Shown here piece by piece: positions 31,522-57,110 of a DNA stretch of 64,000 bases. The translations under genes and the position numbers were made by a program. This DNA is from Planctomycetota bacterium. GTDB taxonomy: Bacteria > Planctomycetota > UBA8108 > SXIK01. Within the stretch, counting starts at the first letter, position 1, and every line of letters starts with the position of its first letter. A model generated the notes under the pieces. That model saw only the letters and a list, made by a program, of their open reading frames with translations, was not told where the DNA came from and ran no database searches. The DNA lies in the NCBI GenBank assembly GCA_965223265.1, contig OZ244999.1, forward strand, positions 992,001 through 1,056,000, written 5' to 3'.

Positions 31522-31874
31522 GGGGGCGACCTGGATTCGACCGGACGCAAGGAAGCATGGGCTGCAGGATGAGGTTCCAGGTGGCCTCATAAAACCCCTG
31601 GGCAATCTTAGTTGGCAACACCAACTACGCAATGGCTGCCTAAAGCGGCCCCTTCGCCGATTCCTTCTCCCTTAGGGAGTCGAACGAGGGCCATAACTAA
31701 GGGATAGTGCCGGAGCTTCGCTTCTGGGCGAAGGTGCGAAACTTTCAGAAGCTGGCCTCGACGGATCCTGTCCTTTGGAGCCTGACGGGCGAGACACCAA
31801 AAGAAGGACTATTCCTGTAGACGCTCACGTGGACTCGTCTCGGGACGGGGGTTCGATTCCCCCCGCCTCCACCA
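31522..31874 (+). ncRNA. ssrA: tmRNA
   Basis: 5' GGGGGCGAC..GATTCGAC and 3' GGTTCGATTCCCCCCGCCTCCACCA. Tag ORF 31614-31643 encodes (A)GNTNYAMAA*. smpB is nearby. Confidence 0.96.
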
Positions 31875-31902
31875 CTCTAAATCACCACCCCAAAACGACT
31901 TA

Positions 31903-32427
31903 GTGGAAGAACCGGGGCGTTTTGGAACAGAAGCGCCAGAAACCGGAACGGGACCGGAACCGCGTGACACGCGCGCGGCACAAAGGGACATAGATTGCGA
32001 ACTTACAGATTCGCAAACTGTCACCGACCGGAACGAAGGCGGCGCTAAGGCGCACTATCCCGGAACCGGATTTGGGCCCCCTGTGGGCCCCAGGCCCGAA
32101 CCCGCACAAGAGCTAGAAGAGCTCGTGTCAGTTCTTCGCGCGAAATGGCCGGAGCTTCCACCCGAACTCCGCCAGGGCGTTGTCGGCATGCTTCGTGGAG
32201 CCCTCGGTGCGGTTCCATTCGGAACTGGTGGTGCCGAAGCCTCCGACCCGCCTGGAACCGACGTCACCCGCTGCGCCATTTGCGATGGGTTGGTGACAGT
32301 CCATTGCGTCCTTTGCTCCCGGTGCGAGCGCGCAGCGTGCGCCGGACACTTCGTCTTTGACCCAGGCTTTGAGTGGCTCTGTCCGCATTGCGTGGAGCTA
32401 CTGGGCGGGGAAGTGGACGCTGACTGA
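31903..32427 (+). CDS. Hypothetical protein with a C-terminal Cys-rich Zn-finger-like segment
   Basis: KWPELPPELRQGVVGML helix motif, then CAIC..CVLC..C..C..H..CPHC. Start is uncertain. Confidence 0.45.
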   Translation: MEEPGRFGTEAPETGTGPEPRDTRAAQRDIDCELTDSQTVTDRNEGGAKAHYPGTGFGPPVGPRPEPAQELEELVSVLRAKWPELPPELRQGVVGMLRGALGAVPFGTGGAEASDPPGTDVTRCAICDGLVTVHCVLCSRCERAACAGHFVFDPGFEWLCPHCVELLGGEVDAD

Positions 32428-32463
32428 CCGGAGGCTCCCTGTGAAGAAGCTTCCGTTTCTGCT

Positions 32464-33147
32464 TCAAGTCTGCTCGTCAAGTCTGCGTTGGCGAGAAAAC
32501 CACTCCTCGAGCTCGTCAATCTCTCGCTCAATTCGGTCGCGGACAAACTCTGGCAGGCTCTCGAATTTCTCGCGAAGGCAGCGGCGCATATCGGAAATGT
32601 GCTCACCGTGGGTTGAGCCGGTGAGCCCTTCCGCTGCTGCTTCTTCCCTTCGCGGGTCACGCTCTGGGTCAGAAATCCAGTCGTCTGAAGACGCCCCAAA
32701 CCTCGATTGCTGCATTTCTTCAGAATCGAGCATGTCGTCAAGGCAAGAAATCGTTGCTTCTTCAATCTCAAAGACAACGAGCGAGAGCTCTTCGCCGTGT
32801 TGCTCTGCCCACTCGAGTTGCGTTGCGCTGTATGCCTCAAAGTACTCTGCGTCAGTATCTCCCTTCCTGAGCGAGAGAAAAGAAAGCAGCGCTCCAATCG
32901 TTTTATCTGAGTCGTCAGCATGAAGAGGAGAGCCAGCAAAGCCGTCCCCTTGAAAAATCGTCATGTCACCGTGGCGCATTTCGTAGCCAATTTCGGTCTG
33001 ACCGCGGTCGTCACGCCGGTGGGTATCCCACATATCGAGCACAACTTTCTCACCGTCAATCTCTGTAATGACGAGTCCTTCGTGCAGAAAATCGCGCGGG
33101 TCTTCACGCTCTGTGTCTTGACTTGTGTCCTGTTCTCTTGCGGCCAT
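32464..33147 (-). CDS. Hypothetical acidic protein, possibly phage-derived
   Basis: 227-aa ORF with a globular-looking core (WDT...IFQGDGFAGSPLHADDSD...LLSFLSLRKGDTDAEYF). Divergent from nrdJ. Confidence 0.65.
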   Translation of the reverse strand: MAAREQDTSQDTEREDPRDFLHEGLVITEIDGEKVVLDMWDTHRRDDRGQTEIGYEMRHGDMTIFQGDGFAGSPLHADDSDKTIGALLSFLSLRKGDTDAEYFEAYSATQLEWAEQHGEELSLVVFEIEEATISCLDDMLDSEEMQQSRFGASSDDWISDPERDPRREEAAAEGLTGSTHGEHISDMRRCLREKFESLPEFVRDRIEREIDELEEWFSRQRRLDEQT

Positions 33148-33245
33148 GGGTCATTTTGCCACGACCCTCTTTCTTACTCAAACCACGTGGAGTGTGACCG
33201 AAACACTCTATTTGCTTAGCGTTTCTCGCTGTGAGACCATTAGCC

Positions 33246-36200
33246 ATGCACGAGCCAGCAGTATCGGAGCGCGCACAATCCGAAAGAAAGACACCGCAAC
33301 AAGAGCAGCGAGGAATCAGCATTTCTCGCCACTTTACCGACGCGTCCCAAGACCCGTACGAGACAGCTGTCTGGAAAAAGCGGCGCGCCGAGATAAAAGG
33401 TGCTGACGGTGAAGTCGTCTTTGAGGCTTCCGACGTCGAATTTCCCTCTCACTTTTCAGCCGTTTCAATTGACATTACAGCGTCGAAGTACTTCAGGCGC
33501 TCGGCACCGACTACTCGAGGTGCTGAAACAAGCCTAAAAGAAGTGGTCGGACGCATGACCCTTGCATGGCGCACGTGGGGCGAAAAGCTTGGCTACTTCA
33601 AGACTCCCGCTGACGCGCAGGCTTTCCAAGACGAGCTGACACACATGCTCGTCCACCAAGTAGCAGCACCAAACTCCCCTCAGTTTTTTAACACGGGGCT
33701 CCACGAAGCCTACGGCCTTACGGGCCCGCCGCAAGGTCACTACTACGTAGACCCTGACACCAAGGAGGTCTTAGAGAGCCGTGACACGTATTCGCGCTGT
33801 CAGCCTCACGCGTGCTTCATTAACGCTGTAACTGACGACCTTCTTGGCCCGGGCGGAATCATGGACTTGTGGACGCGCGAGGCGCGCCTTTTTAAATTTG
33901 GAAGCGGCACCGGCACGAATTTCTCGATAATCCGTGGCGAAGGCGAGCCGCTCTCAAGCGGTGGTGTGTCGTCAGGTCTCATTTCGTTCTTGCGAGTTGG
34001 CGACCGAGCTGCCGGTGCTATCAAGTCAGGCGGTACCACTCGTCGCGCAGCCAAAATGGTGTGTTTGGACGACGACCACCCAGACATTGAAGCCTTTGTG
34101 AACTGGAAGCCAGCAGAAGAAAAGAAAGCCAAGGCGCTCATAGCCGCTGGATTTGGCACTGACTTTAACGGCGAGGCGTACGCCACAGTGAGCGGCCAGA
34201 ATTCAAACAACTCTGTCAGAGTGTCTGACGAGTTCATGCGAGCAGTCGAAGAAAAAGGCGATTGGTTTTTGCGGCGAAGGACTGACGGCGAAGTCTCTAA
34301 GGTGCTTCCAGCCACACGGCTATTTGCTCAAATGTGTCACGCAACGTGGGAGTGTGCTGACCCAGGGCTTCAGTTCGATTCAACCATTCAAGACTGGCAC
34401 ACGTGCCCAGAGTCAGGCCGCATTAACGCGAGCAATCCGTGCTCAGAATACATGTTTCTCGATAACACGGCGTGCAACCTCGCTTCGATTAATCTTCTCA
34501 AGTTTCTTGACTGTGAAACCGGTGAGTTTCAGGTCGAAGACTTCCGTCACGCAGTGCGCCTTTGGACCATGGTGCTCGAAATTTCAGTCGCAATGGCGCA
34601 ATTCCCGTCGCCAGAAATAGCAGAACGCTCGGAGCACTTCCGCACACTTGGCCTTGGCTACGCTAACCTCGGGACACTTCTCATGGTCATGGGAATTCCC
34701 TACGACAGTGAAGAGGGAAGGGCAGTTACAGGCGCCATTACGGCAATCATGGGCGGTGAAGCGTACTTTGCGTCAGCTCTTATGGCAGCAAAGCTTGGTG
34801 CGTTTGAAGGCTACGCTGAAAACGAAGAGCACATGCAGCGCGTAATCAGAAACCACCACCGCGCAGCGTACGGAGCACCGGCTAAAGACTACGAGCAAGT
34901 TGGAACACCGCCAAAAGGACTCAGCGAAGACCTCATGCCCGAGAAGTTGCGGTACCTCGTTCGTGAAGCAAGAGACGCGTGGGGCAGAGCTCTCTACACA
35001 GGAGAAGAGTACGGCTTTCGTAACGCTCAAGTGACCGTCCTCGCACCGACTGGAACAATCGGGTTCTATCTCGATTGCGACACCATGGGAGTCGAGCCAG
35101 AGTTTGCGCTGGTAAAGCACAAGACCTTCGCTGGCGGTGGAGACAGGCGGATTGTGAACCAGTCAGTAAAAGGCGGGCTACAAACGCTTGGATACAAGCC
35201 ACCCGAGATAGAGCGAATCCTTTCCCACGTAAAGGAGAATGAGACCGTAGAAGGAGCCCCCGGGCTACGCGAAGAGCACTTGGCTGTCTTCGACACTGCA
35301 AACAGAAGCGGTAACGGCACACGCGTCATTTCAACTGGTGGACACATTCGCATGCTTGCAGCTGCACAACCGTTTCTCTCTGGTGCCATTTCCAAAACAG
35401 TGAACCTTCCTAAGGAAGCCACTGTGGAAGACATTCGCGAGTCGTTTCTCCTCGCACATGAAATTGGAGTGAAAGCGATTGCGCTCTATCGCGACGGCTC
35501 GAAAGGCTCACAGCCGCTAAACACAACAGCGACTTCAACTGACGGCGCAAAGATTGAAATCAAGTGCGCTGGTTGTGGCGATTCCGCAACACCGGAAAAG
35601 GGAGTGATTGCAGTAGCGAAGAAAAACCCGCTCGATAATTTTCCAGACGAGATTACAGCGCTTCCGCAATGGGTCCTTTGGGAACGCGTTGGTGGCAAAA
35701 AGCTTCCGCTACAGATAAACGGCCGTAGAGCCTCAAGCACTGACCCAACTACGTGGTCTACCTTTGGTGAGGCAAGAGCAGCGCTTCAAGCGCAAGGGCG
35801 AGCGGCTGGGCTTGGCTTTGTTTTCACAGACAATGACCCCTTTGTCGGAATCGATTTGGACAAGGTGCGTCAGTCTTGGGACGGGGATTCCCCTGACTGG
35901 GTTTCAGGGCTCATTGAAGACCTTGCCACGTACACCGAAGTGTCTGTGTCTGGTAAGGGCTACCACCTAATTGTTAAGGCACCAAACCAGTACTTTCGCG
36001 GAGGGAAGTGGCTCTACCAAGCGCCAGGTGACGGTGAGCATAAGATAGAGGTGTACCCGCGCGACCGCTTTTTCACCATGACTGGCGACATTCACGTCTA
36101 TGACGGAGCACTCGCAGAGGTTGACGACAGGACCAAGGAATTTGCAGAGTTCTTTTCGCGGCTACGGGAAGAGCCAAGGCCAACTCGCCAAAGACGACCT

Positions 36201-36527
36201 GGTGACAGGTTTCGTTCGCCGGTTAACACAGAGAAAATGCTTGGGCTATTCCGTGAGCTTGGCGTTGACCCAACGGCAAATGGAAGAAAGCACGTCACTG
36301 TCTCTTGCCCGTTTCATGACGACGACGCGCCGTCGCTAAAAATCACGCCTGACCAAGGCTTTTACTGTCATGCAGAAGAGTGGGGCGGAGGAAGTAGCGC
36401 ATTGCAGAGACGAATCGCCGCGCTCTCCGACGACGAGCTTCGTGACGTTGAGCGTCGCACTGGGGTTCCATACGAAACGCTCTCAAAGATTCGCGAGCGG
36501 TTCTTGCCGCCACCGCCAAAGCTTTAG
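33246..36527 (+). CDS. nrdJ: Class II (AdoCbl) ribonucleotide reductase fused to an NrS-1-like primase-polymerase and a CHC2-like Zn finger
   Basis: RNR motifs: [59 protein letters not shown]. PrimPol motifs: [47 protein letters not shown]. Zn finger: CPFHDD..PSL..FYCH. Confidence 0.9.
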
Positions 36528-36539
36528 GAGTGGGTCTAT

Positions 36540-36756
36540 CGCGGACGTTCGCGCTACCTTTCTTCACAACCAGCGAGTCGATGTGGTTGTTTACTTCACC
36601 GACGGCCATGGTAGAGCGCCAGAGCGTCCACCTCGTGTTCCCGTTCTTTGGTGTCTCACACCCAATGGAATGCGCCCGTGCGAGTGGGGTCGCTTCGTCT
36701 ACATGTCGGGTTTCGTAGACGCAGACGTGAGTTCTTTCTCCTGGCTATTGTCGTGA
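36540..36756 (+). pseudogene. C-terminal fragment of a DUF2201-type VWA-like protein
   Basis: VVVYFTDGHG..PERPPRVPVLWCLT...PCEWG motif with no N-terminal part. Confidence 0.6.
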
Positions 36757-36767
36757 GTGGTAGACGC

Positions 36768-37357
36768 ATGATTCGCCAAGAACTTCCAGGCGGTCACCAT
36801 CTCCTAACGGGCGCGCTCCCCGACGAGCTCCGCCTCGGTGAAGGAGAGTTCGAAACGCTTTGGCACCGTCATCCAGACGAATACCACCAAGTCAGGACGC
36901 CGAGAGGACAGCGGGTTCCAACACCTCGCTGGCAGCAGGCCTACGACAGGGACTACGTCTACACCGGAAGCAAGAACAACGCGCTTCCCCTTAGCGTGCT
37001 GACCGACGGTATTCCGAAACTCTCGCGCATCGTCAGGTGGTGTCAGTCAGAGATTGACGGACGCCTAAACGGTGTACTCGTCAATTGGTACGACGGAAGC
37101 CGTGGGCACTACATTGGAAAGCACCGCGATAGCAGGAAAGGGCTGATTCTGGGAACTCCAATCGTCACGCTGTCTTTCGGCGAAACGCGCACCTTCCGGC
37201 TTCGTCCGTACAAAGGCGACGCTCAGCGCTTGGACTTCGACGCCCCGGACGGAACCGTCTTCGTTCTTCCGTTTGAGACCAATCTCGCGCACGGATAACG
37301 AAGTCGAAGCGCTGCCAAGGTCGTCGCGTGTCAGTAACGCTTCGGGCGTTTGTTTGA
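36768..37357 (+). pseudogene. AlkB-like 2OG-Fe(II) dioxygenase, frameshifted near 37294
   Basis: TPRWQQAY, LVNWY, IGKHRD (HxD), TLSFGETR. Stops at HG*, but the shifted frame continues ITKSKRCQGRRVSVTLRAFV* (RxSxTxR motif). Confidence 0.82.
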
Positions 37358-37485
37358 ACGATTGAGCTCCGGTGGAATGGCCACCAGAACGAGCGCTCTT
37401 TCGTGGAGAGCCCGTGAGCGTCTTCGTCGCAGGCGGGTCGAAGCGCGACTGCTATCCCGGCACGCGATTCTGCCGTTGACACCAC

Positions 37486-38223
37486 TCAAGACCCAACCGC
37501 TCGTTCGAAGTTGGCAGACACTCGTGCGGCGGCATCCTCCAGCGAGCAGGACCAAGTTTCCGACAGGTATTTCAGAACAACCGAAACGTCTCTCGGCTCT
37601 GCAGGCCGCTTTCCGTATTTCACAAACGGCCCGTCACTTTCGGTCAAGACGAGGTCGGGTTCCATGCAACGAATTAGCGCTTGCCCGGACTTCGAACGAA
37701 TCATCGCGGGGTTGACCGAGAAGAAAAAGCCTCGACTGGAGGCAGAAGCGACCTCCCTCTTGGAGCCGCTGAAGTAATGGAGGATAGCTGTTCCCCGGAA
37801 GGTAGCCCCCAAAATTGCGAGTACGTCCTTAGACGACCTACGTGAGTGAATCGATAGGACTCTGTCGCCCAGCATCGTGCACGCATCGACCACTTTCGAA
37901 AAAACCTCTCGCTGCAGTGAACGCTCGGCTTCGTCTCTTGTCTGGTAGTCGAGGCCGACCTCCCCTACGAATCTGGTACGTTCCAGCAGCCCCCTGAGTA
38001 GGTCCAGTTCACCTGAACGAGTCTTCACCAACTGCGGATGCAATCCGAGAGCTGCGTGCACAGTGGGATACTGGTGCGACAACTCCAGGGTATGCTCAAA
38101 CACGGAGGGTGCGTTTGTGACGGCGATGAGGTGACAGCCCTCCCCTCGCGACGCGGCAGCAAGGAGCTGTGGTGGTGCGGGAAATAGGTCCACGTGGCAG
38201 TGGGCGTCAACGAGCCGGGTCAT
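37486..38223 (-). CDS. qatD: QatD, TatD-family nuclease
   Basis: DAHCHVD, GLHP, GEVGLD, IHSR, HYFSG, TESDGP. Last gene of the qat operon. Confidence 0.9.
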   Translation of the reverse strand: MTRLVDAHCHVDLFPAPPQLLAAASRGEGCHLIAVTNAPSVFEHTLELSHQYPTVHAALGLHPQLVKTRSGELDLLRGLLERTRFVGEVGLDYQTRDEAERSLQREVFSKVVDACTMLGDRVLSIHSRRSSKDVLAILGATFRGTAILHYFSGSKREVASASSRGFFFSVNPAMIRSKSGQALIRCMEPDLVLTESDGPFVKYGKRPAEPRDVSVVLKYLSETWSCSLEDAAARVSANFERAVGS

Positions 38224-39556
38224 TGGCCGTCCCTTTTTTCTTGTCCGCACTCTCAAAAAACCGAGACAGTTCGTCGATTCCTCGACGATATACGCTGACC
38301 CAATCGCCTACCTCTTCGGGCTCGATTGGGCCAGAACTCAGGACATCGCAAATATCGTGTTCCCGACTGGTCCCCAGGTACCGGTTGAGCGCAATCTGAA
38401 TCGCCCAGGCGTCTCTGCCAGACTCTGTCTCGTGACTGGGAGGGTCACTGAGCACGTCTATTGCGTAAGTCGCATCAGAGCATTTCGCGTGTGCCACAGC
38501 AGCGCGTCTGATGACGCACGGCACGCAGTATCCGCAATGGGTACCCGGCGATAGTCCATGCCAACGGGCTGCCTCAGGGTGTGCGCATGACATCGTGCTC
38601 GGGAGAATCTCGTAGAGTAGCGCCGGATTCGCGGATTCCGCGAGCATCTCGCCCTTGGTTTTGAACCTGTATGGGAAGTCAATCGAGTTCTTTAGCCCGA
38701 GCACAGACAACAGCTCGCGAAACGAAGCTCCGACAAACGGGTGCGTCGTTCGCGTGCTCAGGCTTCCTGAGCGCGAATCTGTAAACGGGACGTTCAGCGT
38801 TATGAGGCCGTTCTCCGATACGTACAGCGGCGTGGCCTCGTCGATTGCATTCGCAACGAGCAAGCCTAACGCGAAGAACAGAAAAGACCGTGAGCGCTTC
38901 GTCGTCTCACGGGTGGAATCGGCTATCGTCGGTGGCTCGACGAAGAAGAACGCCGAAGCTACTCTCTCGCCATAGTGCTTCTTGATTCGGTCAAACACGT
39001 CCGCTTGAAAATGGTGCGTCATGCCCGCGCCGTAATGGCCCACGAGCGCGAGACGACGCCCTCGTTCCAGGAGGTCTATAGTACCAACCAGCGAGTCGAC
39101 TCCTCCCGAGAACAGTGAGACCGCGTTCGGTGCCGACTCCATTTCGCCGGTCGGTTCGAAGTCTGGCGAGTACTCCCTCGTACGAAAGTGTAAATCCCAA
39201 TCATCCCCTGATAGGAACGATAGAAGTCTGGTGAGTGGCTCTTTGGCCTCATTCCACGCTTTCTCGTTGGCTACGGGAACGTAGAGTGTAATCTCGCGTG
39301 TCCAGCCATCGCTGGCAGTGCTTCGTTCGATGCAGTGGTCCGAAGCGTAGACCACCATCGCAAGCACGGCCAGGTCGTACGCTTGCTCCTCGAACTTCCG
39401 CACGGACCGTGGAGCCATAGTCCGCAGCACCCCTTCGCGCATGCGGAATCCATCGGCTTCTTCGGCGAATGAGAGCACGAGCCGCGGAGTGTCCGACGTC
39501 AAATCTGGGAAATAGCAATCTTCCTCTTCGACATGTACGACTACGTGCCATCTCAT
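38207..39556 (-). CDS. qatC: QatC, QueC-like PP-loop protein
   Basis: DGWTR, LFSGGVDS, RSRSFLF, ENGLITLNVP, STRTTHP, SCAH, HCGYCVPCVIRR. Confidence 0.92.
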   Translation of the reverse strand: MRWHVVVHVEEEDCYFPDLTSDTPRLVLSFAEEADGFRMREGVLRTMAPRSVRKFEEQAYDLAVLAMVVYASDHCIERSTASDGWTREITLYVPVANEKAWNEAKEPLTRLLSFLSGDDWDLHFRTREYSPDFEPTGEMESAPNAVSLFSGGVDSLVGTIDLLERGRRLALVGHYGAGMTHHFQADVFDRIKKHYGERVASAFFFVEPPTIADSTRETTKRSRSFLFFALGLLVANAIDEATPLYVSENGLITLNVPFTDSRSGSLSTRTTHPFVGASFRELLSVLGLKNSIDFPYRFKTKGEMLAESANPALLYEILPSTMSCAHPEAARWHGLSPGTHCGYCVPCVIRRAAVAHAKCSDATYAIDVLSDPPSHETESGRDAWAIQIALNRYLGTSREHDICDVLSSGPIEPEEVGDWVSVYRRGIDELSRFFESADKKKGTANDPAR

Positions 39557-40452
39557 TCGGCGACCTCCAGCAGACCGTAGGCGCTGTCGAAAATCTCGTT
39601 GATGATTCCGGAACCCTCCGGGCCGGACCAATCGACACCAAGAACGTCAAGGTCTTTGGTATCGAGCTTCACACACTCTCTGACGTAGTTCTTGACCATC
39701 CTCTCGAGACGAACCGCGGAATCTGGCGAAACAGCCCCCTTTTCGATGCTCTGACCGAGCTCTTCCAGCCACCTTGAGTAGATGTACCCGCTGACCGAGT
39801 CCCGGATGGCGGAGGCGACGTCGTCTCGCGTCATACTCTCGAGCGGCGACAGGTCGTTCGAGTCGAAATCGCACCGCTGAAAAACCCGATACAAGGCTTC
39901 ATTCGCTGCCCTTCGCGCCGCGGTCTCTTCACGTTTTGCACCGTGTGGGGCCAGGGCGTTCGCGATGGCGGCAAAAACCTCGCCGACACTTCTCCCGACG
40001 AATCTCTCAAGACCGAGCGAGCCGAGAGCGGCGCGAACTCCGCCGCGTGCGACATTGGACAGAAACGAGCCAACACCGGCAGCCACGGCCCGACCAGACC
40101 TCGAGGTACGAGTCGCGGCGCGGGAACCACCTCTACCCCGCACGTAAGCGCGACCCGCCGAACGGGGGCCTCGTCCTCCGCCTCCGCCCGAAGCGAATCG
40201 CGTTAGGTTCGCTTTCGCCGTTCTCCAATGAGCTGACGGCTGCACCCGGCCGGAATTGCTATCTGGGGGAGTTGATTGAGTGGCTTCGGGAGGAGAAGGT
40301 GTGGGGCCCTGCTCTGTAGCTTCATCGTTGGGCGGTGCTGCTCCGCCGCCCCCATCGTCCGAGCCGTCCGTCGGTGTCGGCGGAGGAACCGCCCAACTCG
40401 GCAGTAGGCTTTGCTCTGGTGCCGGTCCACCATATGAGTCCGACGTGCCCAC
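39553..40452 (-). CDS. qatB: QatB
   Basis: Characteristic MGTSxSYGGP N-terminus and Gly/Pro-rich region. Lies between qatA and qatC, with an ATGA overlap into qatC. Confidence 0.88.
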   Translation of the reverse strand: MGTSDSYGGPAPEQSLLPSWAVPPPTPTDGSDDGGGGAAPPNDEATEQGPTPSPPEATQSTPPDSNSGRVQPSAHWRTAKANLTRFASGGGGGRGPRSAGRAYVRGRGGSRAATRTSRSGRAVAAGVGSFLSNVARGGVRAALGSLGLERFVGRSVGEVFAAIANALAPHGAKREETAARRAANEALYRVFQRCDFDSNDLSPLESMTRDDVASAIRDSVSGYIYSRWLEELGQSIEKGAVSPDSAVRLERMVKNYVRECVKLDTKDLDVLGVDWSGPEGSGIINEIFDSAYGLLEVAE

Positions 40453-40456
40453 GTTC

Positions 40457-42376
40457 CTAGCGTTCCTTCTTCAACTTCGCGGCAGCCGCCTTCTTGAGCA
40501 TCGGATTGGAGCTACTCAACTCCCACTCACCGATGAGCGTCTCCGCTGCGGTTTCCGCTGAAGAGCCGGAACACGCATTTCGGAGCCTTGGTACAACGTC
40601 CGGCGGCAGCTTCATGTCCGGAGCCCGACGGAGATACCCAACAAGCTCGCCGCCCAAGTCGGACCTCGCTCCGACAAAGTCGAATAGTCGATACAAGACG
40701 CATTCGTCGGTAGTCCAGTCTTGCTCCTGCTCAGCTCGTGCGCCCAGTTCCTGGAAGACAGCCGCAGCATCGGCTGGGCTGAGTTGCGGGGAGGCTCCGA
40801 TGCCACGTCTGCGAATGCTCTCGCTGTCAGAAAGGACCTGGGTGAGCGATTCTTGAGCCTGCGGGCTGAGGCGCTGAATGCTTGAGACCATCGACCCCAG
40901 TACGTCCCGGGAAAAGAACACATACGGCCGAAGGTCAACGCCAGCAAGCGGCGGTTCGAGAGCCAGCCAATCGCGGACAAGCTCGTCGTTTGTCCACGCC
41001 TGGAGTTCGGCAGACAGAGGCGGCTCGCTTGGGCGCTCTGTCTCTTCGTCCGCGTCCGAGGAATCTTCTCTGCCTCGGTCTGCAGCAACGTGAGTCTCCA
41101 GGAGCTTGAGTTCTTTTGGAGTTCCTGCTTGCTCTGCCTGTAGTTGGGCCAGGCGCTTGAAAGACTCCGAGCGCAGGTACTCGAGAAGCATCAGCTTCGC
41201 CAAAACCTGTTGGTCCAGGTCCCCGATGCCCCGTGACTTCGCCATCTCCAAGCGCATGAGCAGCATGTTCAGGAACCGCTTGCACTGCCTCGGATTGCCG
41301 TTCAATCCCGGAGCGAGAATTGCGGATATCCGTGAAGCAAGAGCGAGACGGTCTGGAAGCCCATCGGGAATTGTCTCCAGGGTTTCGTGCGCAGTTGCGC
41401 TCCCGAACGCGCGGCCTTCTCGAATGCTCTCCGTTCGGAAAGCCCATTCAGCGCACTTTGTTATGGCATCCGCGTCCACACCGGCAAGCTGCGTGAACAG
41501 CAGGCTGATGTACGTTTCCATTTCCACGCGGCCGAGCACGGGTACGCGAACAGGATACTGTATGAGCTTTTCGAGGTAGTCGCGCCCCACTTCCGCTCGG
41601 CTCCCCGGGAGCTCTGGAAACCGACGCTGAACGGCGTACTTCACCAATCGCTCGTCCGCCCCGATGATGAATGCCGAGTGCGGAACGAACAGGAACAGCT
41701 TAATCGCCTCCAGCGTCTCAATTATCGTGTCCGGAAGGCAACGGTCCAAGTCATCGATTACAACCACCAACCTCTCGATATCCGCCGCTTCGAGGAGGGA
41801 CTTGAACTCGCCACGAAACTCTCGCACGCTCGTCTGAATTGTCTTCTCAGACTCATCAGCTAGTAGTTTCTCAAGTTCCTCTGGTTTGAGTTTCTCCAGA
41901 GATTCCTGCGCCTTTTCGAGCACTCCCGGAACATCGGAACCTACCGCGACACCGAGTGCCGCCGGACCGCCAATCGCGAGCGCTGTACCATACTTTCCAA
42001 CCGCCTTGCCCACTGTTCCAGCGACTCGAAACCAGTTGATACGGCGGAGAAGCTTGAGCCCAACGCGCTTGGCTACGTCCGAGAGGGTTTTCTTCTTGCG
42101 ACTCAAGAGTTCGCTGACAATGGTCTCGAGGAGGGCAGCTTTCGCGTCGTCAAACCCCTCAAAGAGCCACCCGTTGAACTCTAGAGTCAGAACCTTGGGG
42201 TCTGAACCGAGGCCCTCCGCGACGATTTTGAGTAGACTCGACTTGCCGCTACCCCAATCCCCGAACACACCAATTGTCGCGGGCAGCAATTGGTCGTTCT
42301 TCACGATTCCTCGAACTGCTTCAGCCAAGTGCCCGAAGCCAAGCAGGTCAATAGAGGTTTCGTTATCCGACCACAT
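40457..42376 (-). CDS. qatA: QatA, KAP-family P-loop ATPase
   Basis: MWSDNET..DLLGF, GDWGSGKS, IDDLDRCLP, YLEKLIQYP, GNPRQCKRFLN. Confidence 0.92.
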   Translation of the reverse strand: MWSDNETSIDLLGFGHLAEAVRGIVKNDQLLPATIGVFGDWGSGKSSLLKIVAEGLGSDPKVLTLEFNGWLFEGFDDAKAALLETIVSELLSRKKKTLSDVAKRVGLKLLRRINWFRVAGTVGKAVGKYGTALAIGGPAALGVAVGSDVPGVLEKAQESLEKLKPEELEKLLADESEKTIQTSVREFRGEFKSLLEAADIERLVVVIDDLDRCLPDTIIETLEAIKLFLFVPHSAFIIGADERLVKYAVQRRFPELPGSRAEVGRDYLEKLIQYPVRVPVLGRVEMETYISLLFTQLAGVDADAITKCAEWAFRTESIREGRAFGSATAHETLETIPDGLPDRLALASRISAILAPGLNGNPRQCKRFLNMLLMRLEMAKSRGIGDLDQQVLAKLMLLEYLRSESFKRLAQLQAEQAGTPKELKLLETHVAADRGREDSSDADEETERPSEPPLSAELQAWTNDELVRDWLALEPPLAGVDLRPYVFFSRDVLGSMVSSIQRLSPQAQESLTQVLSDSESIRRRGIGASPQLSPADAAAVFQELGARAEQEQDWTTDECVLYRLFDFVGARSDLGGELVGYLRRAPDMKLPPDVVPRLRNACSGSSAETAAETLIGEWELSSSNPMLKKAAAAKLKKER

Positions 42377-42421: not shown

Positions 42422-42949
42422 TCACCACTTCGCCTCAAACTCCTCCTGAACGTGCGCGTCCGTCAAGTTCAGGTAAATGGCCGTAGTCTCAAGCCGGTCA
42501 TGGCCGAGCACTTTCTGTAACCATGGGAGGCTCATGCCTTTTTGAATCGCGCACGTCGCGAATGTGTGACGAAGAACGTGCGGCGTTACGTCACGAGAAA
42601 TCTGTGCTCGGTTAGCAACCGACTTCACGATTCTCTGCGCTTGCCGCACTCCGCAAAACCAGTCCTGGTGAAGTGCAAAGTACGGCTCAAGAATCGTTCT
42701 GACTCGATTCGAAAGAGGAACGACACGATTCTTTGTTCTCTTACCGTACGGTCCGCCCTTGCCCTTGATTCGAAGCTGACGCTGCTGCCACTGAATATTC
42801 TGCGGCGTAAGCGTACACAGCTCCTCAATCCGAAGGCCCGTATCGAGCAGAGTCCATACGATGAGCTTCTCGCGAGAGCTCTCGCAGGCATTGGAAAGCC
42901 GGTCAGCTTCTTCCGAGAGCAGCGGCTCCCGGACGAATTGATAGGCCAT
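42422..42949 (-). CDS. Small tyrosine recombinase (catalytic domain only, 175 aa)
   Basis: TGLRIEE, GKG..K, HVLRHTFAT, LGH, TAIY: the full R-K-H-R-H-Y set. Confidence 0.9.
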   Translation of the reverse strand: MAYQFVREPLLSEEADRLSNACESSREKLIVWTLLDTGLRIEELCTLTPQNIQWQQRQLRIKGKGGPYGKRTKNRVVPLSNRVRTILEPYFALHQDWFCGVRQAQRIVKSVANRAQISRDVTPHVLRHTFATCAIQKGMSLPWLQKVLGHDRLETTAIYLNLTDAHVQEEFEAKW

Positions 42950-42999
42950 TCGTCTCTCTCCACATGTTGCGCCGCTCCTGCGGCGACGCACTTTTCCCA

Positions 43000-43153
43000 G
43001 GAAAGCGACATTAGGTCGCCTTCCATCGAATAGCCTATCAGACTGCGACGGTCTCGAAAAGCCCCTGATTTGACGGCTAAGACCGCCCTATGGAGCCACT
43101 TACACGAGACTTCGGGCGGCGGAGCGTGTCGCCTTTCTATGCCGAAGGCGACA
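43000..43153. promoter_or_regulatory. Two imperfect palindromes, candidate recombinase binding/core sites
   Basis: ggaaagcga-N7-tcgccttcc (43000-43024) and tgtcgcctt-N9-aaggcgaca (43127-43153), upstream of the recombinase gene. Confidence 0.5.
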
Positions 43154-43379
43154 TGGAGACGTTGGGCGCGCTTACGTCCGCGATGAGAGGACCATTGCAC
43201 GGACCCCCAAGGTATTTCTTCCGTCGTGTCGAGGACCAGAATCGTCCGACTTCTTACATTTCGCCGGTTGGTCGCGCACCCCGCGCTGCTGTAGGTCGTT
43301 GCTCAGTCCGGTCAGTTCAGCGTCACTCTTTAGATTTGACGCCTTTTGCAAAAAGTCGACTCGCGGATTCTCTCGAACA

Positions 43380-45614: not shown

Positions 45615-48600
45615 CTACTTCGTCCCCGGCGCTAACTCGACAGCCTTCGCGAGCTCGACATACCGGCAGAAAGCGTTCGCGAGCTGCATCTGACGCGGCG
45701 ACCGGCACTCCGGCTCAAAGAGCTTCGCGCTCGCAACCAGAATACACGCACAGCGCGCGCGAGACGTTGCTACATTCAGACGGTTGAGGCTGTAAAGGAA
45801 CTCCATTCCGCGGGGAGCCTCTTCTGGTGACGACGTTGTCAACGAGTAGACCACGACAGGTGCTTCTTGGCCTTGGAACTTGTCGACCGTTCCGATTCGA
45901 GCTTGCGGCAATCGTTCGCTGAGGTCTGCGACCTGCGCGTTATAGGGTGCGACAACGAGTATATCCTCGAAGGAGACCGGGCGCGCTTCGCCGCGCTGGT
46001 TCGTCCAGGTGACAGAACCGGAAACGAGCGATTCGACGATTCTCGCGACGCATTCGACTTCCTCGGCAGACGAGCTTTGGTTCCCAACGTGTTCCACCGG
46101 GACAAAGAAGAGCCCGTGGCCGTCCCAAGTTCCTGAGCCGTTCAGCACCTGGAGCTCAAGGCCGGGACGTGGCCGAAGCCGGTCTTCGTAGAAGAGCTCG
46201 GAAGTGAGCTGGCATATCGCGGGGCTCAGCCGCCATGTTTCTGCGAGAAACAGACCTCGGTAATCCGGTAGCGTCTTTCGATTCCCGAGAATGTGCTCAA
46301 GCGCCGACACTTCCGTGCCGTCCGGGTGAGACCCTTGCTGTGGTTGTTCGAGTTGCCGAGGGTCCCCCAGCAGTACGATACTCTTTGCGGCTTGGGCGAC
46401 CGCGAGCACGTTCGCAAGAGACATCTGTCCGGCCTCGTCGACAAACAAGACGTCGACAGATTCGAAGAACTCCTCGCGCGCCCAGAGCCAGGCTGTTCCT
46501 GCTCCTACCTGAGCCGTACCGTTCTCGAGAGCGTCGCGGACCTTTCCGTTGTCGGTGAACTCAAGTACCGCGGAGCCTTCATTCTTCGCCTTGCCGGAAA
46601 CTTTCTGCACGCACGTAAGAGCAAGGTCGGCTTCGTCTGCGGCTTTGACTACCTCATCGATGAGGTTTCGAATGACCTTGTGGCTTACGGCCGTGATTCC
46701 TACTCGCTTCCCCGCGCGGACGAGCTCGCATACCATCCGAGCTCCGGTGTACGTTTTTCCTGACCCGGGAGGGCCCTGGACCGGTAGAACACCTCCGTCA
46801 AGTGAGAGGCCGAGTCGCTTTGCAGCGTCGAGAGTATCCTCTCCAGGGCGCATGAGCTCGATGCCGCTGGAAAGTCTTGGTGGTCGCCTTAGAAGCAAGT
46901 CCCGGGCACTCCTGTAGAGACCTTGGGTGACGACACCGTTCTCAACGACCCATTCAGCAAGCCGCATGACGGAATCGGATAACACACCTGACCTGACGAC
47001 TGAGTGCGCGAAAACGGCTTCTGGATGAATTCCTGCAGCCTGTCCGGCTTTCTTTATATCGACTGTCCGGTGCGCGAGGTCAACCTCGTCGACTGTCCCG
47101 ACGTTTTCGCCGTTGGCGGTGTGAAGCCTGTCGCGTTTTCTGAGTTGAGCATCTTGCTTTGGAAACGAGTAGCGGTCAACCGGACACTTCGCCGTTCCAC
47201 CGATTCGTTCCACGAACGTAAGGTCAGCAAGTGCTGCTTTCTCGTCGAGGAGCTCTTCATTTGTGAGGTCCTGTAGGCGGAAGTACTCCCACCAAGGAGC
47301 CTTTCCTTCGCGACGATGCCAATCGAGCATGTACGCAAGAAGCCAACGCGCATGTTGCTCCTTGCTCCGGCTGTGCTCTTCTATGGGAACGTCCCGTAGC
47401 AGTGATTCCATGACGACCTGCACACGTCCGCTCCTCTCTTCAAGAGCGTCGCTTGGGTCACCAACGAGCAGCTCGGGTCTTTCGACCGTTTCACCGTTGT
47501 CAATGAGCTCCGTTCTCAGTCTTTCCAACCAATCTCTAAGACGCAGCGTCGAGACGCAGTCGTCTCGGTTGTAGGCCTCTACGACGGAGCGCGTATCCTT
47601 GCTCAGGTCGGCACTTCCGAGCTCAAGAGCTCGCTCAAGAGCTCGCAGATTCGCTGACGCGTCCGGAAGTTCAATCTCGCGCTCATATCCGTAGAACGGT
47701 TCGAGCTCCTTAATCGAGTACCGTTCAACGCTTGCGCGAAGCGATTGCCGCACTACTGCGTGGAGGTCAACGAATACTCCCGCTCGAAGCAGTCGGTCGA
47801 CCTCATCTTCTCGCGTGGCGTACCGACCCATGAGCCGCTTCAGAGCAGCTGTGTCGTACGGTGTGAAGTGATAAACGTGAAGCCCCCTGAAAGCAGTCCG
47901 TCGCTCCACTACGGAATCAACGAAGCTCTGGAAAGCGGCACGTTCTCCCTCACGGTCAAGTCCCCAGAGACCGGTGTAGGCAAGTTCGCCGTCATTATCG
48001 AGAGTTGCCCAGCCAAGGAGGTACTCAAGTCCGTCGCGACCAACGAACGTATCGCCCTCCACGTCGAAGAACATGTCTCCCGGCGAAGGCTCTGGAAGGC
48101 GGGCAAGGCCACGCTCTGGCTCCGTGGGAAGAAGTTCGTAAATTGGAGCGTTTTTCTCTCTGCCTTCAAACTGAACACGAGCTTGTTCCCTGACTCTCAC
48201 GAGTCCCTCTACCGAACCGCGCTGCGGCCGCTTTGAAAGAGGAAGCGGAAGATTGGCTAACCCCTCAAGCGTTCCTACGTCCCAGCTTTCAAGCTCTCTT
48301 CTCTGGATTTTGGAAATGCCTGCAACAAGTGACAGGTGGTCGTCTTCGTGTCGCTTTCGGTCACACGAGGGCCACCAACGACAGATATCGCACTGCGGGA
48401 CGGGCTCGGGATAGATGCTCTCGTGAGAGCTCGGTTCTTGCGCAACGAACTCCTCAAGACGCTTCCTTACGAGGCGGTAGTAGGCGAGGAATTCGCTTAC
48501 GCGAAACGATTCTGGAACAAAGTCAACCCCAGTCGGGACGACATGCGTTCGCTCCGGCAAGGTACCTTGCACTTCGGAAAGAAGGTCAGAGTAGAGACAA

Positions 48601-49043
48601 AGTTGCAGGACGGTGCTTGCACGTGTCTCTTTCGCGAGCTTTGTGTCGTATACCTCGTAAGAGAACCGACCGAGATTGCTTGGCTTCTCGATTCTTCGAA
48701 GCACATCAGCTCGACCGAACCAACGACCTGCTTGCAGGGTCGCCTGAACGATTACGTGCACACCCCGACGAATGGCAGAGCACGTCTGTTCGAAAGCGAA
48801 TCCGGGAGATTCACCGTCGTCAATGCGAACGACTGAGAGCCCGCTTCTTCGGAGGCTTTCGACATAGGCTTCCTCGTGCTCGAAGCCTCTCTGCTGGAGG
48901 ACTTCGAGTGTTGGGTCCTTCCAGCGGGGAGGCTCGAGTTCGCCATGCGCGACCTGCTTATCAAGAGCTGTCAGATACCGGCAGCCAAGGTGGTTCGCGA
49001 GGTCTGAAGCGGACAGGCTAAGTTGTTCAGAAAGGAGTCTCAT
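45615..49043 (-). CDS. TM0106-family RecB-like nuclease / RNase H-like / SF1 helicase
   Basis: SASDL..HLGC, GRADVL..YDTKLA, C..CRW..C, FFDVEGD, YNRDDC, QGPPGSGKT, DEAGQ, GDPRQL, TVDKFQGQE, RLNVATSRA. Confidence 0.9.
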   Translation of the reverse strand: MRLLSEQLSLSASDLANHLGCRYLTALDKQVAHGELEPPRWKDPTLEVLQQRGFEHEEAYVESLRRSGLSVVRIDDGESPGFAFEQTCSAIRRGVHVIVQATLQAGRWFGRADVLRRIEKPSNLGRFSYEVYDTKLAKETRASTVLQLCLYSDLLSEVQGTLPERTHVVPTGVDFVPESFRVSEFLAYYRLVRKRLEEFVAQEPSSHESIYPEPVPQCDICRWWPSCDRKRHEDDHLSLVAGISKIQRRELESWDVGTLEGLANLPLPLSKRPQRGSVEGLVRVREQARVQFEGREKNAPIYELLPTEPERGLARLPEPSPGDMFFDVEGDTFVGRDGLEYLLGWATLDNDGELAYTGLWGLDREGERAAFQSFVDSVVERRTAFRGLHVYHFTPYDTAALKRLMGRYATREDEVDRLLRAGVFVDLHAVVRQSLRASVERYSIKELEPFYGYEREIELPDASANLRALERALELGSADLSKDTRSVVEAYNRDDCVSTLRLRDWLERLRTELIDNGETVERPELLVGDPSDALEERSGRVQVVMESLLRDVPIEEHSRSKEQHARWLLAYMLDWHRREGKAPWWEYFRLQDLTNEELLDEKAALADLTFVERIGGTAKCPVDRYSFPKQDAQLRKRDRLHTANGENVGTVDEVDLAHRTVDIKKAGQAAGIHPEAVFAHSVVRSGVLSDSVMRLAEWVVENGVVTQGLYRSARDLLLRRPPRLSSGIELMRPGEDTLDAAKRLGLSLDGGVLPVQGPPGSGKTYTGARMVCELVRAGKRVGITAVSHKVIRNLIDEVVKAADEADLALTCVQKVSGKAKNEGSAVLEFTDNGKVRDALENGTAQVGAGTAWLWAREEFFESVDVLFVDEAGQMSLANVLAVAQAAKSIVLLGDPRQLEQPQQGSHPDGTEVSALEHILGNRKTLPDYRGLFLAETWRLSPAICQLTSELFYEDRLRPRPGLELQVLNGSGTWDGHGLFFVPVEHVGNQSSSAEEVECVARIVESLVSGSVTWTNQRGEARPVSFEDILVVAPYNAQVADLSERLPQARIGTVDKFQGQEAPVVVYSLTTSSPEEAPRGMEFLYSLNRLNVATSRARCACILVASAKLFEPECRSPRQMQLANAFCRYVELAKAVELAPGTK

Positions 49044-49122
49044 GGCGGTGCAGGGACCTTTCCGGCTGCCGCGCGAGACCCCTGTGTTCTGTCCGGCTCG
49101 CCTCTATCCATAAACGCAGCGC

Positions 49123-54031: not shown

Positions 54032-54041
54032 TTGCGCTCCT

Positions 54042-57000: not shown

Positions 57001-57110
57001 GTTTCAATGACTCTCTGCGTCGGTTGGCCGTTCGGGTCGAGCTCCCAGTGCTTCGCTGGGTACTCATAAGGGGAATTCAGAATCGGTGCCTCGAAGAAGG
57101 ACTCGTTCAT
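54042..57110 (-). CDS. res: Type III RM restriction subunit (BPTD_3080-like Res)
   Basis: ATGAGKT, DEAHH, SATP, MLTEGWD, EQVIGRALR, C-terminal PDF...VEIKG nuclease motif. Confidence 0.9.
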   Translation of the reverse strand: MNESFFEAPILNSPYEYPAKHWELDPNGQPTQRVIETRRLAEFITPIPKPKKRKGKSGQKEFVFDEGKGLSTDEQQYDPNPVINAVRNHVEKWRALPNPSVWGVTPETARLLQHWRHHRFSDIRPFFCQVEAVETLIWLTEVAPKKKAHRAFVEQLEQANEVANPGLPRLALKLATGAGKTTVMAMIIAWQTVNAVRRPSSKKFTRGFLVVAPGLTIRDRLRVLQPNDPDSYYESRELIPNDMLGDLGKARIVITNYHAFKLRETLELSKGGRSLLQGRGEPLSTVETEGQMLQRVMPGLMGMKHVMVLNDEAHHCYREKPGEDAEGDLKGDDRKEAEKNREAARLWISGLEAVGKKLGIARVVDLSATPFFLRGSGYAEGTLFPWTMSDFSLMDAIECGIVKLPRVPVADNIPGGEMPKFRNLWEHIRPKMPKKGRGKGKTLDPLSIPVELQTALEALYGHYKKTYELWEEEGIRVPPCFIVVCNNTSTSKLVHDYISGFYREHEDGSSTLENGRFELFRNFNEHGDRLARPRTLLIDSEQLESGDALDKNFRDMAQDEIERFRREIIERTGDRHQAEKITDQELLREVMNTVGKQGRLGESIRCVVSVSMLTEGWDANTVTHVLGVRAFGTQLLCEQVIGRALRRQSYDLNEAGLFNVEYADVLGIPFDFTAKPVVAPPQPPRESVHVRAIRPDRDDCEIQFPRVEGYRVELPEERLTAAFNEDSTLELTPDVIGPSKTRNEGIIGEGVDLNLVHTGDLRRSTLLFHLTQRLLYTKWRDPGEEPKLHLFGQLKRITRQWLDNHLVCKGGTFPAQLMYQSLADMACERVTAGITRKLVGERPIKAVLDPYNPTGSTTHVSFNTSKKTRWETAPNRCHVNWVVCDSDWEAEFCRVAEAHAQVKAYVKNHSLGLEVPYRYGSETRKYFPDFVVLIDDGHGEDDLLQLVVEIKGYRREDAKEKKSTMETYWVPGVNNLKTYGRWAFAEFTDVFEMESDFEAKVKEKFDAMVEQAIESGAAEAAV

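Follow-up and report, generated by a model that had tools for sequence, protein, structure and literature searches.

A gene joining a class II ribonucleotide reductase to a NrS-1-type primase-polymerase in a mobile island of a Planctomycetota bacterium

In phage T4, the synthesis of deoxynucleotides is coupled to replication by the deoxynucleoside triphosphate (dNTP)-synthetase complex, a multi-protein assembly with non-covalent contacts. In the present study, a gene was analysed whose product has a comparable layout within one chain. The gene lies at 33246-36527 of a 64,000-nucleotide stretch from a Planctomycetota bacterium (assembly GCA_965223265.1, contig OZ244999.1, positions 992,001 to 1,056,000 of the forward strand), and this whole stretch is called the window below. 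Its predicted product joins a ribonucleotide reductase (RNR) of the NrdJ type, a linker with a CxxC motif, a primase-polymerase (PrimPol) and a zinc element. Like the T4 complex, the fusion places the precursor supply beside the DNA-synthesising machinery. Unlike the T4 complex, it has a covalent link, and the partner is a primase-polymerase rather than a replisome.

Three described systems were closer to the single halves. The dimeric class II RNRs of the NrdJd type, represented by PDB entry 7b9q and by a second NrdJ of the same genome, share the catalytic barrel, the N-terminal domain and the first CxxCG with the fusion. Canonical NrdJd enzymes possess a TSCPD domain and a six-cysteine zinc tail, and the fusion lacks both; two insertions of 7b9q are also missing from it. 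In the available part of PMC5704485, the zinc tail of NrdJd is described as mediating electron transfer. For the C-terminal half, the best PDB match by sequence and by fold was the NrS-1 PrimPol, with which it has in common the DxD motif, the S-x-S dNTP loop, the histidine and an aromatic residue at the Y146 position. The NrS-1 enzyme starts chains with dNTPs only; its loop S108-P109-S110 is where the incoming dNTP binds, and Y146 adjoins the 2' position of the sugar and is sugar-selecting. It carries the helix bundle PF22763 and a C-terminal helicase, and neither a zinc finger nor a fusion partner is described for it (all in the available part of PMC8718748). In the fusion, by comparison, a CHC2 zinc element replaces the helix bundle, the helicase is absent and an RNR stands in front. 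The nearest non-fused relatives of the C-terminal half were PrimPol-helicases of mobile elements such as P0004 and P0002, with 34-51% identity. In these proteins the PrimPol is followed by an AAA_25, DUF3987, D5_C or DnaB-like module, and none carried an RNR among the matches listed.

The fusion gene was a single open reading frame (ORF), open throughout, of 1093 amino acids from the ATG plus a stop; an alternative GTG start at 33231 would give 1098 amino acids. The RNR part covered residues 1 to about 760, and the CxxC linker, the PrimPol domain (793-981) and the zinc element (1013-1059) followed. The RNR motifs were QPHAC (residues 186-190), NPCSE (397-401), TACNL (408-412) and APTGT (600-604), and the linker held CAGC (774-777, DNA 35565-35576). 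In the C-terminal half, DLD was found at residues 870-872 (DNA 35853-35861), SVSGKGYH at 900-907 with the His codon at 35964, EVY..RFFTMTG at 935-947 and CPFH...CH at 1021-1042. An initial annotation, made from the letters alone, had read the same single frame as an RNR joined to a PrimPol and had placed the same motifs at these positions, and both observations stood. The two halves were counted as equal in composition, with a GC content of 0.546 (0.605/0.468/0.565 at the three codon positions) for the first versus 0.545 (0.629/0.461/0.545) for the second. A search of 31800-37500 for sigma-70-like promoters gave none, where chance would give 1.4.

By profile matches above curated cut-offs, residues 1 to about 760 are a class II (adenosylcobalamin) RNR, NrdJ. 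Pfam PF08471 (Ribonuc_red_2_N) matched with an E-value of 5e-24 and 84.9 bits (cut-off 27), and PF02867 (Ribonuc_red_lgC) with 2.9e-123 and 412.7 bits. Furthermore, NCBIfam NF005122 reached 1027.6 bits (cut-off 859) and TIGR02504 NrdJ_Z 570.2 bits (cut-off 399.95); the latter model is named ribonucleoside-diphosphate reductase. The best PDB match of this half was 7b9q (E = 2.2e-263), and the Thermotoga NrdJ 1xje was next (E = 3.9e-47). We take NPCSE to be the thiyl-radical cysteine with its Asn/Glu partners, and QPHAC together with TACNL to be the redox cysteine pair. The RNR motifs were retained in all four fusion proteins known from the searches described below, with NPCGE (S400G) in P0298 and QVHAC (P187V) in P0390.

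The C-terminal half was assigned with similar consistency. The PHROG DNA-primase families phrog_1829, 13901 and 3022 matched residues 793-981 with E-values of 1.4e-38 to 2.1e-32, and a profile of the half matched the NrS-1 primase chains 7rr4, 7rr3, 6k9a and 6a9w in the PDB at about 2e-28. An AlphaFold2 model of this half, built on a 4-row alignment, had a mean predicted local distance difference test score (pLDDT) of 67.2 and a predicted TM-score (pTM) of 0.54. When the model was searched with Foldseek, the top 6 matches were all NrS-1 entries (E = 1.5e-13 to 1.1e-12, probability 1.00, TM 0.41-0.48), followed by a CRISPR-associated Prim-Pol and pRN1 ORF904. Moreover, D870/D872, S900/S902/H907 and E935 were invariant in the four fusion proteins and aligned to the NrS-1 chain. 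S900/S902 corresponded to S108/S110 of the dNTP-binding loop, and Y146 aligned with F942 of the window protein and with a Tyr in the other three. Both the sequence matches and the predicted fold thus support the assignment of residues 793-981 to the superfamily of archaeo-eukaryotic primases (AEPs) as a PrimPol of the NrS-1 type, as the initial annotation had suggested; of the separate halves, profile searches recovered NrdJ for one, and profile and Foldseek searches the NrS-1 PrimPol for the other.

The helix-bundle domain PF22763 was not detected in the window protein, P0240, P0390 or P0298, and was detected in the non-fused relatives P0002, P0003 and P0433. No ATPase or helicase family was found in the fusion protein with Pfam and PHROGs, and the chain ends 34 residues past the zinc element. 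The zinc element itself was matched by PDB 1d0q, the zinc-binding domain of DnaG, at positions 222-262 of the C-half profile (E = 1.3e-3), and by phrog_2304 and phrog_360. Pfam PF01807 (Zn_ribbon_DnaG) gave 25.5 bits in P0240, above the cut-off of 24.9, and 16.2 bits in P0390. The zinc ligands C1021, H1024 and C1041-H1042 were present in the window protein; the fourth ligand, a cysteine in the other three members, was absent from it (CHAEEW versus CHGC). The C-half model has predicted tail helices in its residues 266-301, within a block with pLDDT 65-90, and the tail residues D1062, R1071 and R1083 were invariant in all four proteins. In P0004, a Cys/His element after the PrimPol aligned with the zinc finger of the fusion and was followed by AAA_25. 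On account of this element at the same place, the C-terminal half looks like the first 300 or so residues of a PrimPol-helicase protein such as P0004.

Between the halves, the usual end of NrdJ was reduced to a remnant. No TSCPD domain was detected in the fusion protein by Pfam, and the absence of this domain and of the zinc-ribbon tail had likewise been noticed in the initial annotation. Most of the 120 nearest NrdJs listed carried TSCPD (PF12637), and the complete ones also had a Cys-rich end. Short canonical NrdJs end in CxxCG, about 10 residues, and CxxCxxCG..C, which makes an array of six cysteines. Only 2-3 of these six C-terminal cysteines were retained in the fusion proteins. C774 and C777 were invariant in all four, in a linker that was otherwise 21-59% identical; a third linker cysteine was present in three of the four and absent from the window protein. 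The linker CxxC resembles the first part of the canonical Cys-rich tail. The genome's second NrdJ (C1:6799053-6802577; L011:1554-5078, minus strand) was a canonical one of 1174 amino acids, with a TSCPD-type sequence and with six cysteines at its end. Its identity to the RNR core of the fusion was 63%, and the tree placed it in another clade.

The fusion was not confined to the window. In a filter-free phmmer search with the full protein over 1.84 billion representatives, the top match was P0240 (1077 amino acids, 51% identity), aligned in one stretch over query positions 15-1084; P0298 (839 amino acids, 49% identity) was also found, over 247-1086. When a profile of the C-terminal half was compared with longer proteins, P0240, P0298, the window protein itself (P0001) and P0390 (1081 amino acids) scored 437-603 bits, the next protein scored 117 bits, and all four carried PF02867. 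Accordingly, three further proteins share the junction at 49-51% identity to the window protein, so that full-length homologues across it, which the initial annotation had proposed to look for, do exist, and a one-off readthrough or deletion is not upheld. Each fusion protein was alone in its 90% cluster or shared it with one other protein, and the sources differed. Among 120 relatives of the C-terminal half listed per search (word-indexed and profile), PF02867 was present only in fusion proteins. The word-indexed search gave 183 proteins among 6127 candidates, all of them PrimPol-helicases except the query, and missed the three homologues.

In a four-way alignment, the order of the parts was identical in all four proteins. 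The positions C399/E401, C410/N411, APTGT, C774/C777, D870/D872, S900/S902/G905/H907, E935, R941 and C1041/H1042 were invariant. Pairwise identity was 59-70% in the NrdJ core and 34-63% in the C-terminal half. The ranking of the pairs was the same in both halves, with P0390 and P0298 closest and the window protein most distant, as would be predicted for one old fusion followed by co-divergence. A FastTree phylogeny was built from 86 NrdJ cores, comprising the four fusions, the paralogue and 81 of 150 listed matches (those of 700-1300 amino acids; 68 outside this range were omitted). The four fusions formed one side of a branch with a support of 33, and P0240, P0390 and P0298 were joined at 99. 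Taken together, the alignment and the tree suggest that the fusion protein is genuine and kept by selection, with the catalytic motifs of both enzymes shown by the alignment to be intact.

Outside these four proteins, the combination was absent from what was searched. When the whole protein was run with tblastn, 496 of 72,556 plasmid records and 913 of 50,697 phage records gave a match, and no match covered 80% or more of it. No NrdJ lay within 10 kb of a PrimPol among the 122 loci listed (at least 74 metagenome, 21 viral and at least 27 genome loci). No relative of the fusion was among 599 pattern matches in genome contigs. In the genomes of 30 relatives, NrdJ was present and never joined to the PrimPol part; the zinc-finger part by itself was weakly matched twice there (E = 1.7e-4 and 4.3e-4). 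In addition, the source genome had no second PrimPol copy.

The junction was also followed in sequencing runs. Logan contigs of the runs X1, X2 and X3 each spanned 33000-37000 in one piece with 0 differences; these runs are two samples of one study, possibly the source of the assembly itself. In run X4, one contig spanned the junction at 35554-35731, and a second contig of 60 bases and depth 2 matched at 35554-35583 and left the reference exactly at the end of this stretch. Its 30 divergent bases were an exact copy of C1:6084798 (minus strand), a site 5 Mb distant within this genome. In the genome, the 30 bases ahead of the break at 35583 were unique, and the distant site was unlike the junction and shared no repeat with it. 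An unfused variant with a stop right after CAGCGD, as this contig would give, was rejected; since the foreign 30 bases were unique, unrelated and copied from a distant genome site, the loose end was judged to be a chimeric read. The misassembly that the initial annotation had considered is not upheld, and the fusion gene was confirmed as real, neither an assembly artefact nor a one-off.

What the protein does can be proposed from its parts. The reading that we prefer, and for which the arguments on the two sides seem to us evenly balanced, is a selected NrdJ-CxxC-PrimPol-CHC2 fusion carried as island cargo, with the RNR feeding deoxynucleotides to a primase directed to single-stranded DNA (ssDNA). 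Judged from the domain content, we infer a DNA primase that has no helicase, is directed to ssDNA and comes with a deoxynucleotide supply of its own. The N-terminal half would reduce ribonucleoside diphosphates using adenosylcobalamin, and the conserved CxxC on the flexible, variable linker would be the likeliest candidate to act as a redox shuttle in shortened form. As the RNR matched a diphosphate-reductase equivalog, its product would be deoxynucleoside diphosphates (dNDPs), so a kinase step is needed between the halves, and nucleoside diphosphate (NDP) kinase would act there. The C-terminal half, guided by the zinc element, would then start and briefly extend DNA from deoxynucleotides on ssDNA. 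The template is taken as single-stranded because the fusion protein has no helicase; it might be a strand that conjugation brings into the cell, the element after its excision, or a gap at a lesion. The joining of the halves would give the primase a local deoxynucleotide supply in cells with low pools.

A bolder form of this proposal is that the halves of a ribonucleotide-to-DNA enzyme are docked and pass the product on via one kinase step, so as to establish the element in dNTP-depleted cells. It is put forward tentatively, and we would sooner expect it to fail than to hold. A complex prediction of residues 140-784 with 785-1093 on a 4-row alignment scored 0.53, against 0.00 for the best of 3 controls, which falls under 'weak support'. 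For calibration, 58 of 80 solved complexes attained the docking mark, as did 2 of 110 mismatched pairs; only 7 of the 80, but both mismatches, attained it at 0.60 or under. The docking runs agreed in at least 59% of contacts, with a partner pLDDT of at least 80. The depleted pools would be those of the stationary phase or of dNTP-depleting immunity. If true, the docked enzyme would be a new establishment or counter-defence device and the first covalent link of precursor synthesis and priming.

Several results weigh against the preferred reading of a self-supplied primase. The NrdJ type, as classified from its sequence, yields dNDPs, hence the primase would not be fed directly with dNTPs. The six-Cys re-reduction tail is reduced to its first CxxC(G), plus one Cys in three of the four proteins. 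For the NrdJd of S. nassauensis, the available part of PMC5704485 reports that all six cysteines were required for turnover with tris(2-carboxyethyl)phosphine (TCEP), and that the truncated enzyme was active with dithiothreitol (DTT) only. The zinc element of the window protein reached 20.2 bits with PF01807, under the cut-off, and the window copy is the most eroded member, being without both the third linker cysteine and the fourth zinc ligand. The model of the C-terminal half is only moderate in its mean pLDDT, again from a 4-row alignment. Regarding the history of the family, the support of 33 for the four-way grouping is low, and the canonical P0270, which has a TSCPD domain, lies inside the same clade supported at 95. 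The family is also very rare, with 4 proteins in about 15 billion, and its link to a mobile element comes from one genome.

That mobile element is delimited by the transfer-messenger RNA (tmRNA) gene listed in Table 1. The last 28 bases of the tmRNA gene form the left attachment site (attL), and an exact 28-bp repeat of them occurs 71.3 kb downstream, at window-coordinate 103154 (C1:1095154-1095181; L110:19154-19181). The GC content falls from about 0.62 to about 0.55 at the tmRNA gene, and the fusion gene begins 1.4 kb from attL. A tyrosine integrase (L110:17644-19242, Phage_integrase E = 1.5e-15) stands next to the distal repeat. The island also contains a TrwC relaxase (L109:17155-19692, minus strand, E = 1.3e-70), a TrwB-type coupling protein (L109:15557-17158, minus strand, TrwB_AAD_bind E = 4.4e-40), a ParA-like ATPase (L110:3526-4248) and a DnaQ-like exonuclease (L109:13549-14226, minus strand). 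From these genes and repeats, the carrier is a tmRNA-integrated mobilisable or conjugative island of about 71 kb with defence cargo. The attachment repeats, the integrase, the relaxase and the coupling protein argue that it is not a phage; therefore, the initial interpretation stood in part, as the fusion, the NrS-1-like half and the missing tail were recovered and a phage as carrier was not borne out. Its proposals of a self-supplying replication module and of a counter to dNTP-depleting defences are kept here as hypotheses.

Table 1. Positions of the fusion gene, its parts and neighbouring genes (window coordinates).
Feature	Position	Strand	Basis or remark
tmRNA gene	31522..31874	+	ARAGORN; last 28 bases (31847-31874) = attL
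Whole fusion gene	33246..36527	+	uninterrupted ORF; 1093 codons + stop; GTG alternative 33231
Class II RNR N-terminal domain	33405..33659	+	residues 54-138; Pfam PF08471
RNR ten-stranded barrel	33810..35489	+	residues 189-748; Pfam PF02867
Junction and linker with CxxC	35526..35630	+	residues 761-795; C774, C777
AEP PrimPol domain, NrS-1 type (supported by sequence and predicted fold)	35622..36188	+	residues 793-981; PHROGs, PDB profile, Foldseek
DnaG-like CHC2 zinc-binding element	36282..36422	+	residues 1013-1059; Pfam PF01807 below cut-off, PDB 1d0q, PHROGs
C-terminal helical tail (predicted)	36423..36524	+	residues 1060-1093; model of C-terminal half
AlkB-like 2-oxoglutarate-Fe(II) oxygenase gene	36648..37298	+	Pfam PF13532 E 4e-11; PHROG 'alkylated DNA repair' E 9.5e-5
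QatD	37486-38256	-	E 3.9e-70
QatC	38207-39631	-	E 2.2e-115
QatB	39553-40452	-	E 2e-38
QatA	40457-42376	-	E 3.5e-149

The gene just downstream of the fusion leads to the first alternative. According to it, the fusion would be DNA-damage-tolerance or repair cargo: the PrimPol would re-prime or fill lesion gaps in the manner of other bacterial and eukaryotic PrimPols, the RNR would supply deoxynucleotides in non-growing cells, and the AlkB-like enzyme would remove alkyl lesions. It is then the host cell, and through it the island, that would profit, rather than the replication of the island itself. The AlkB-like gene follows on the same strand after 120 bases and is a possible operon partner, and the DnaQ-like exonuclease is also within the island. 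The absence of a helicase and of an origin-binding helix bundle suits an enzyme of gaps and ssDNA better than a replicative one, and a Thermus PrimPol borne by an integrative and conjugative element is discussed in connection with repair and defence in the available parts of PMC9751324 and PMC8718748. However, nearly all relatives of the PrimPol half were mobile-element primase-helicases among the matches listed, and the co-occurrence with AlkB is known from one genome. We consider repair cargo rather unlikely, though it is the strongest of the competing explanations. On the other side of the fusion gene, a divergent 227-codon ORF lies upstream; it belonged to no known family and had a coding-like base composition.

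Beyond the AlkB-like gene, the window is rich in defence genes. A complete QatABCD anti-phage system (37486-42376, minus strand) stands beside the fusion gene. A type III methyltransferase (51230-54097, minus strand; PADLOC MTase_III, 1393.6 bits) and its restriction partner, a protein with ResIII and endonuclease domains (54042-57110, minus strand), were found further on. Two adjoining helicase-like genes (45615-51210, minus strand), one of 1142 amino acids with an MkoA/MkoC/DpdJ-like C-terminus and one of 695 amino acids resembling UvrD/GajB, may be a further defence module. The fusion gene could accordingly be a defence or counter-defence gene, either as part of an anti-phage arsenal or as a help for the incoming element against dNTP-depleting host defences. 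Its place between attL and the complete QatABCD, with the type III restriction-modification pair and helicase-rich genes further on, is typical of a defence island. Such a neighbourhood alone is weak evidence, however, and the protein matched none of 5027 PADLOC models at an E-value of 0.001 or below. To our knowledge, no known defence system uses an RNR, which also counts against this explanation. A defence role thus seems quite improbable.

Other genes of the island were recorded as well. An integrase-family ORF (42422-42991, minus strand) had 189 amino acids and the catalytic domain only (E = 6.9e-30), and a 191-amino-acid ORF in another frame overlapped upstream of it (region 42422-43200, minus strand). 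Possibly, this is a frameshifted integrase of an older, smaller island, and the 71 kb would then be a tandem composite; the short ORF is a hint in this direction, and no internal copy of the attachment repeat was found in the window at up to 3 mismatches. A Ser/Thr kinase fused to a domain resembling formylglycine-generating enzyme (FGE)-sulfatase (973 amino acids; L109:5446-8367, minus strand) adjoins an extracytoplasmic function (ECF) sigma factor (L109:4823-5527, minus strand). Right after attL, the ORF 31903-32427 (plus strand) has a C-terminus with eight Cys/His ligands, CxxC-x7-CxxCxxC-x4-C-xx-H-x11-CxxC. This motif had 3 six-frame matches in the whole genome, and the N-terminal part of the ORF had a homologue in a relative's genome, G001 (E = 6.1e-17). 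The same ORF held the sole six-frame match in the island to the motif of a separately encoded Cys-rich RNR tail. It was not linked to the RNR because its weak PDB matches are plant homeodomain (PHD)-type fingers (E = 0.07-1.2).

It might also be supposed that only one half is active: an RNR with the PrimPol-zinc part as an oligomerisation or regulatory appendage, or a PrimPol with the RNR as a nucleotide-sensing, non-turnover domain. The loss of the canonical six-Cys tail, the incomplete zinc site of the window copy and the faster divergence of the C-terminal half compared with the RNR core all point this way. The tested catalytic residues of both halves, however, were invariant or conservatively replaced in all four proteins, even at 34% identity, and the loss of either activity is hard to reconcile with this; we regard a one-sided enzyme as improbable, and as a poorer account than a defence role. 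An artefact or recent accident, whether a misassembly, a sequencing error deleting a stop or a one-off deletion joining two genes, is very improbable indeed, for the depth-2 contig of X4 that would suggest it ends in a copy of a distant, unrelated site, and, although all runs holding the sequence come from one study that may be the assembly's own source, contigs of all four runs cross the junction and three other proteins share it.

Both domains of the fusion are well known. The novelty lies in how they are combined, in the missing usual partners on either side, and in the arrangement of an AEP with a CHC2 element. No description of an RNR-primase fusion was found in the titles and abstract starts of the papers that literature searches listed, and the initial annotation had likewise known of none. 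In the AEP domain-architecture survey PMC5862659, the word 'reductase' had 0 occurrences in the main text, and its supplementary tables could list an RNR fusion. In the main text of PMC9669993, a survey of RNR insertions and extensions, 'primase', 'polymerase' and 'fusion' had 0 occurrences. In the jumbo-phage survey PMC7824862, RNR and primase are mentioned separately only.

RNRs and primases are among the best-studied families of DNA metabolism, and no record of the two in one chain was found. From the conservation of this fusion comes direct genetic evidence that a functional coupling of precursor supply with strand initiation is possible, and the fusion offers a simple one-protein system for tests of substrate hand-over. 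Enzyme technology could profit from a primase that turns ribonucleotide precursors into DNA primers. Moreover, a class II RNR working, if it works, without the six-Cys tail, a part considered necessary for turnover in its subclass, bears on how NrdJ enzymes are re-reduced. For mobile elements, the fusion suggests a way in which incoming ssDNA may be established where deoxynucleotides are scarce.

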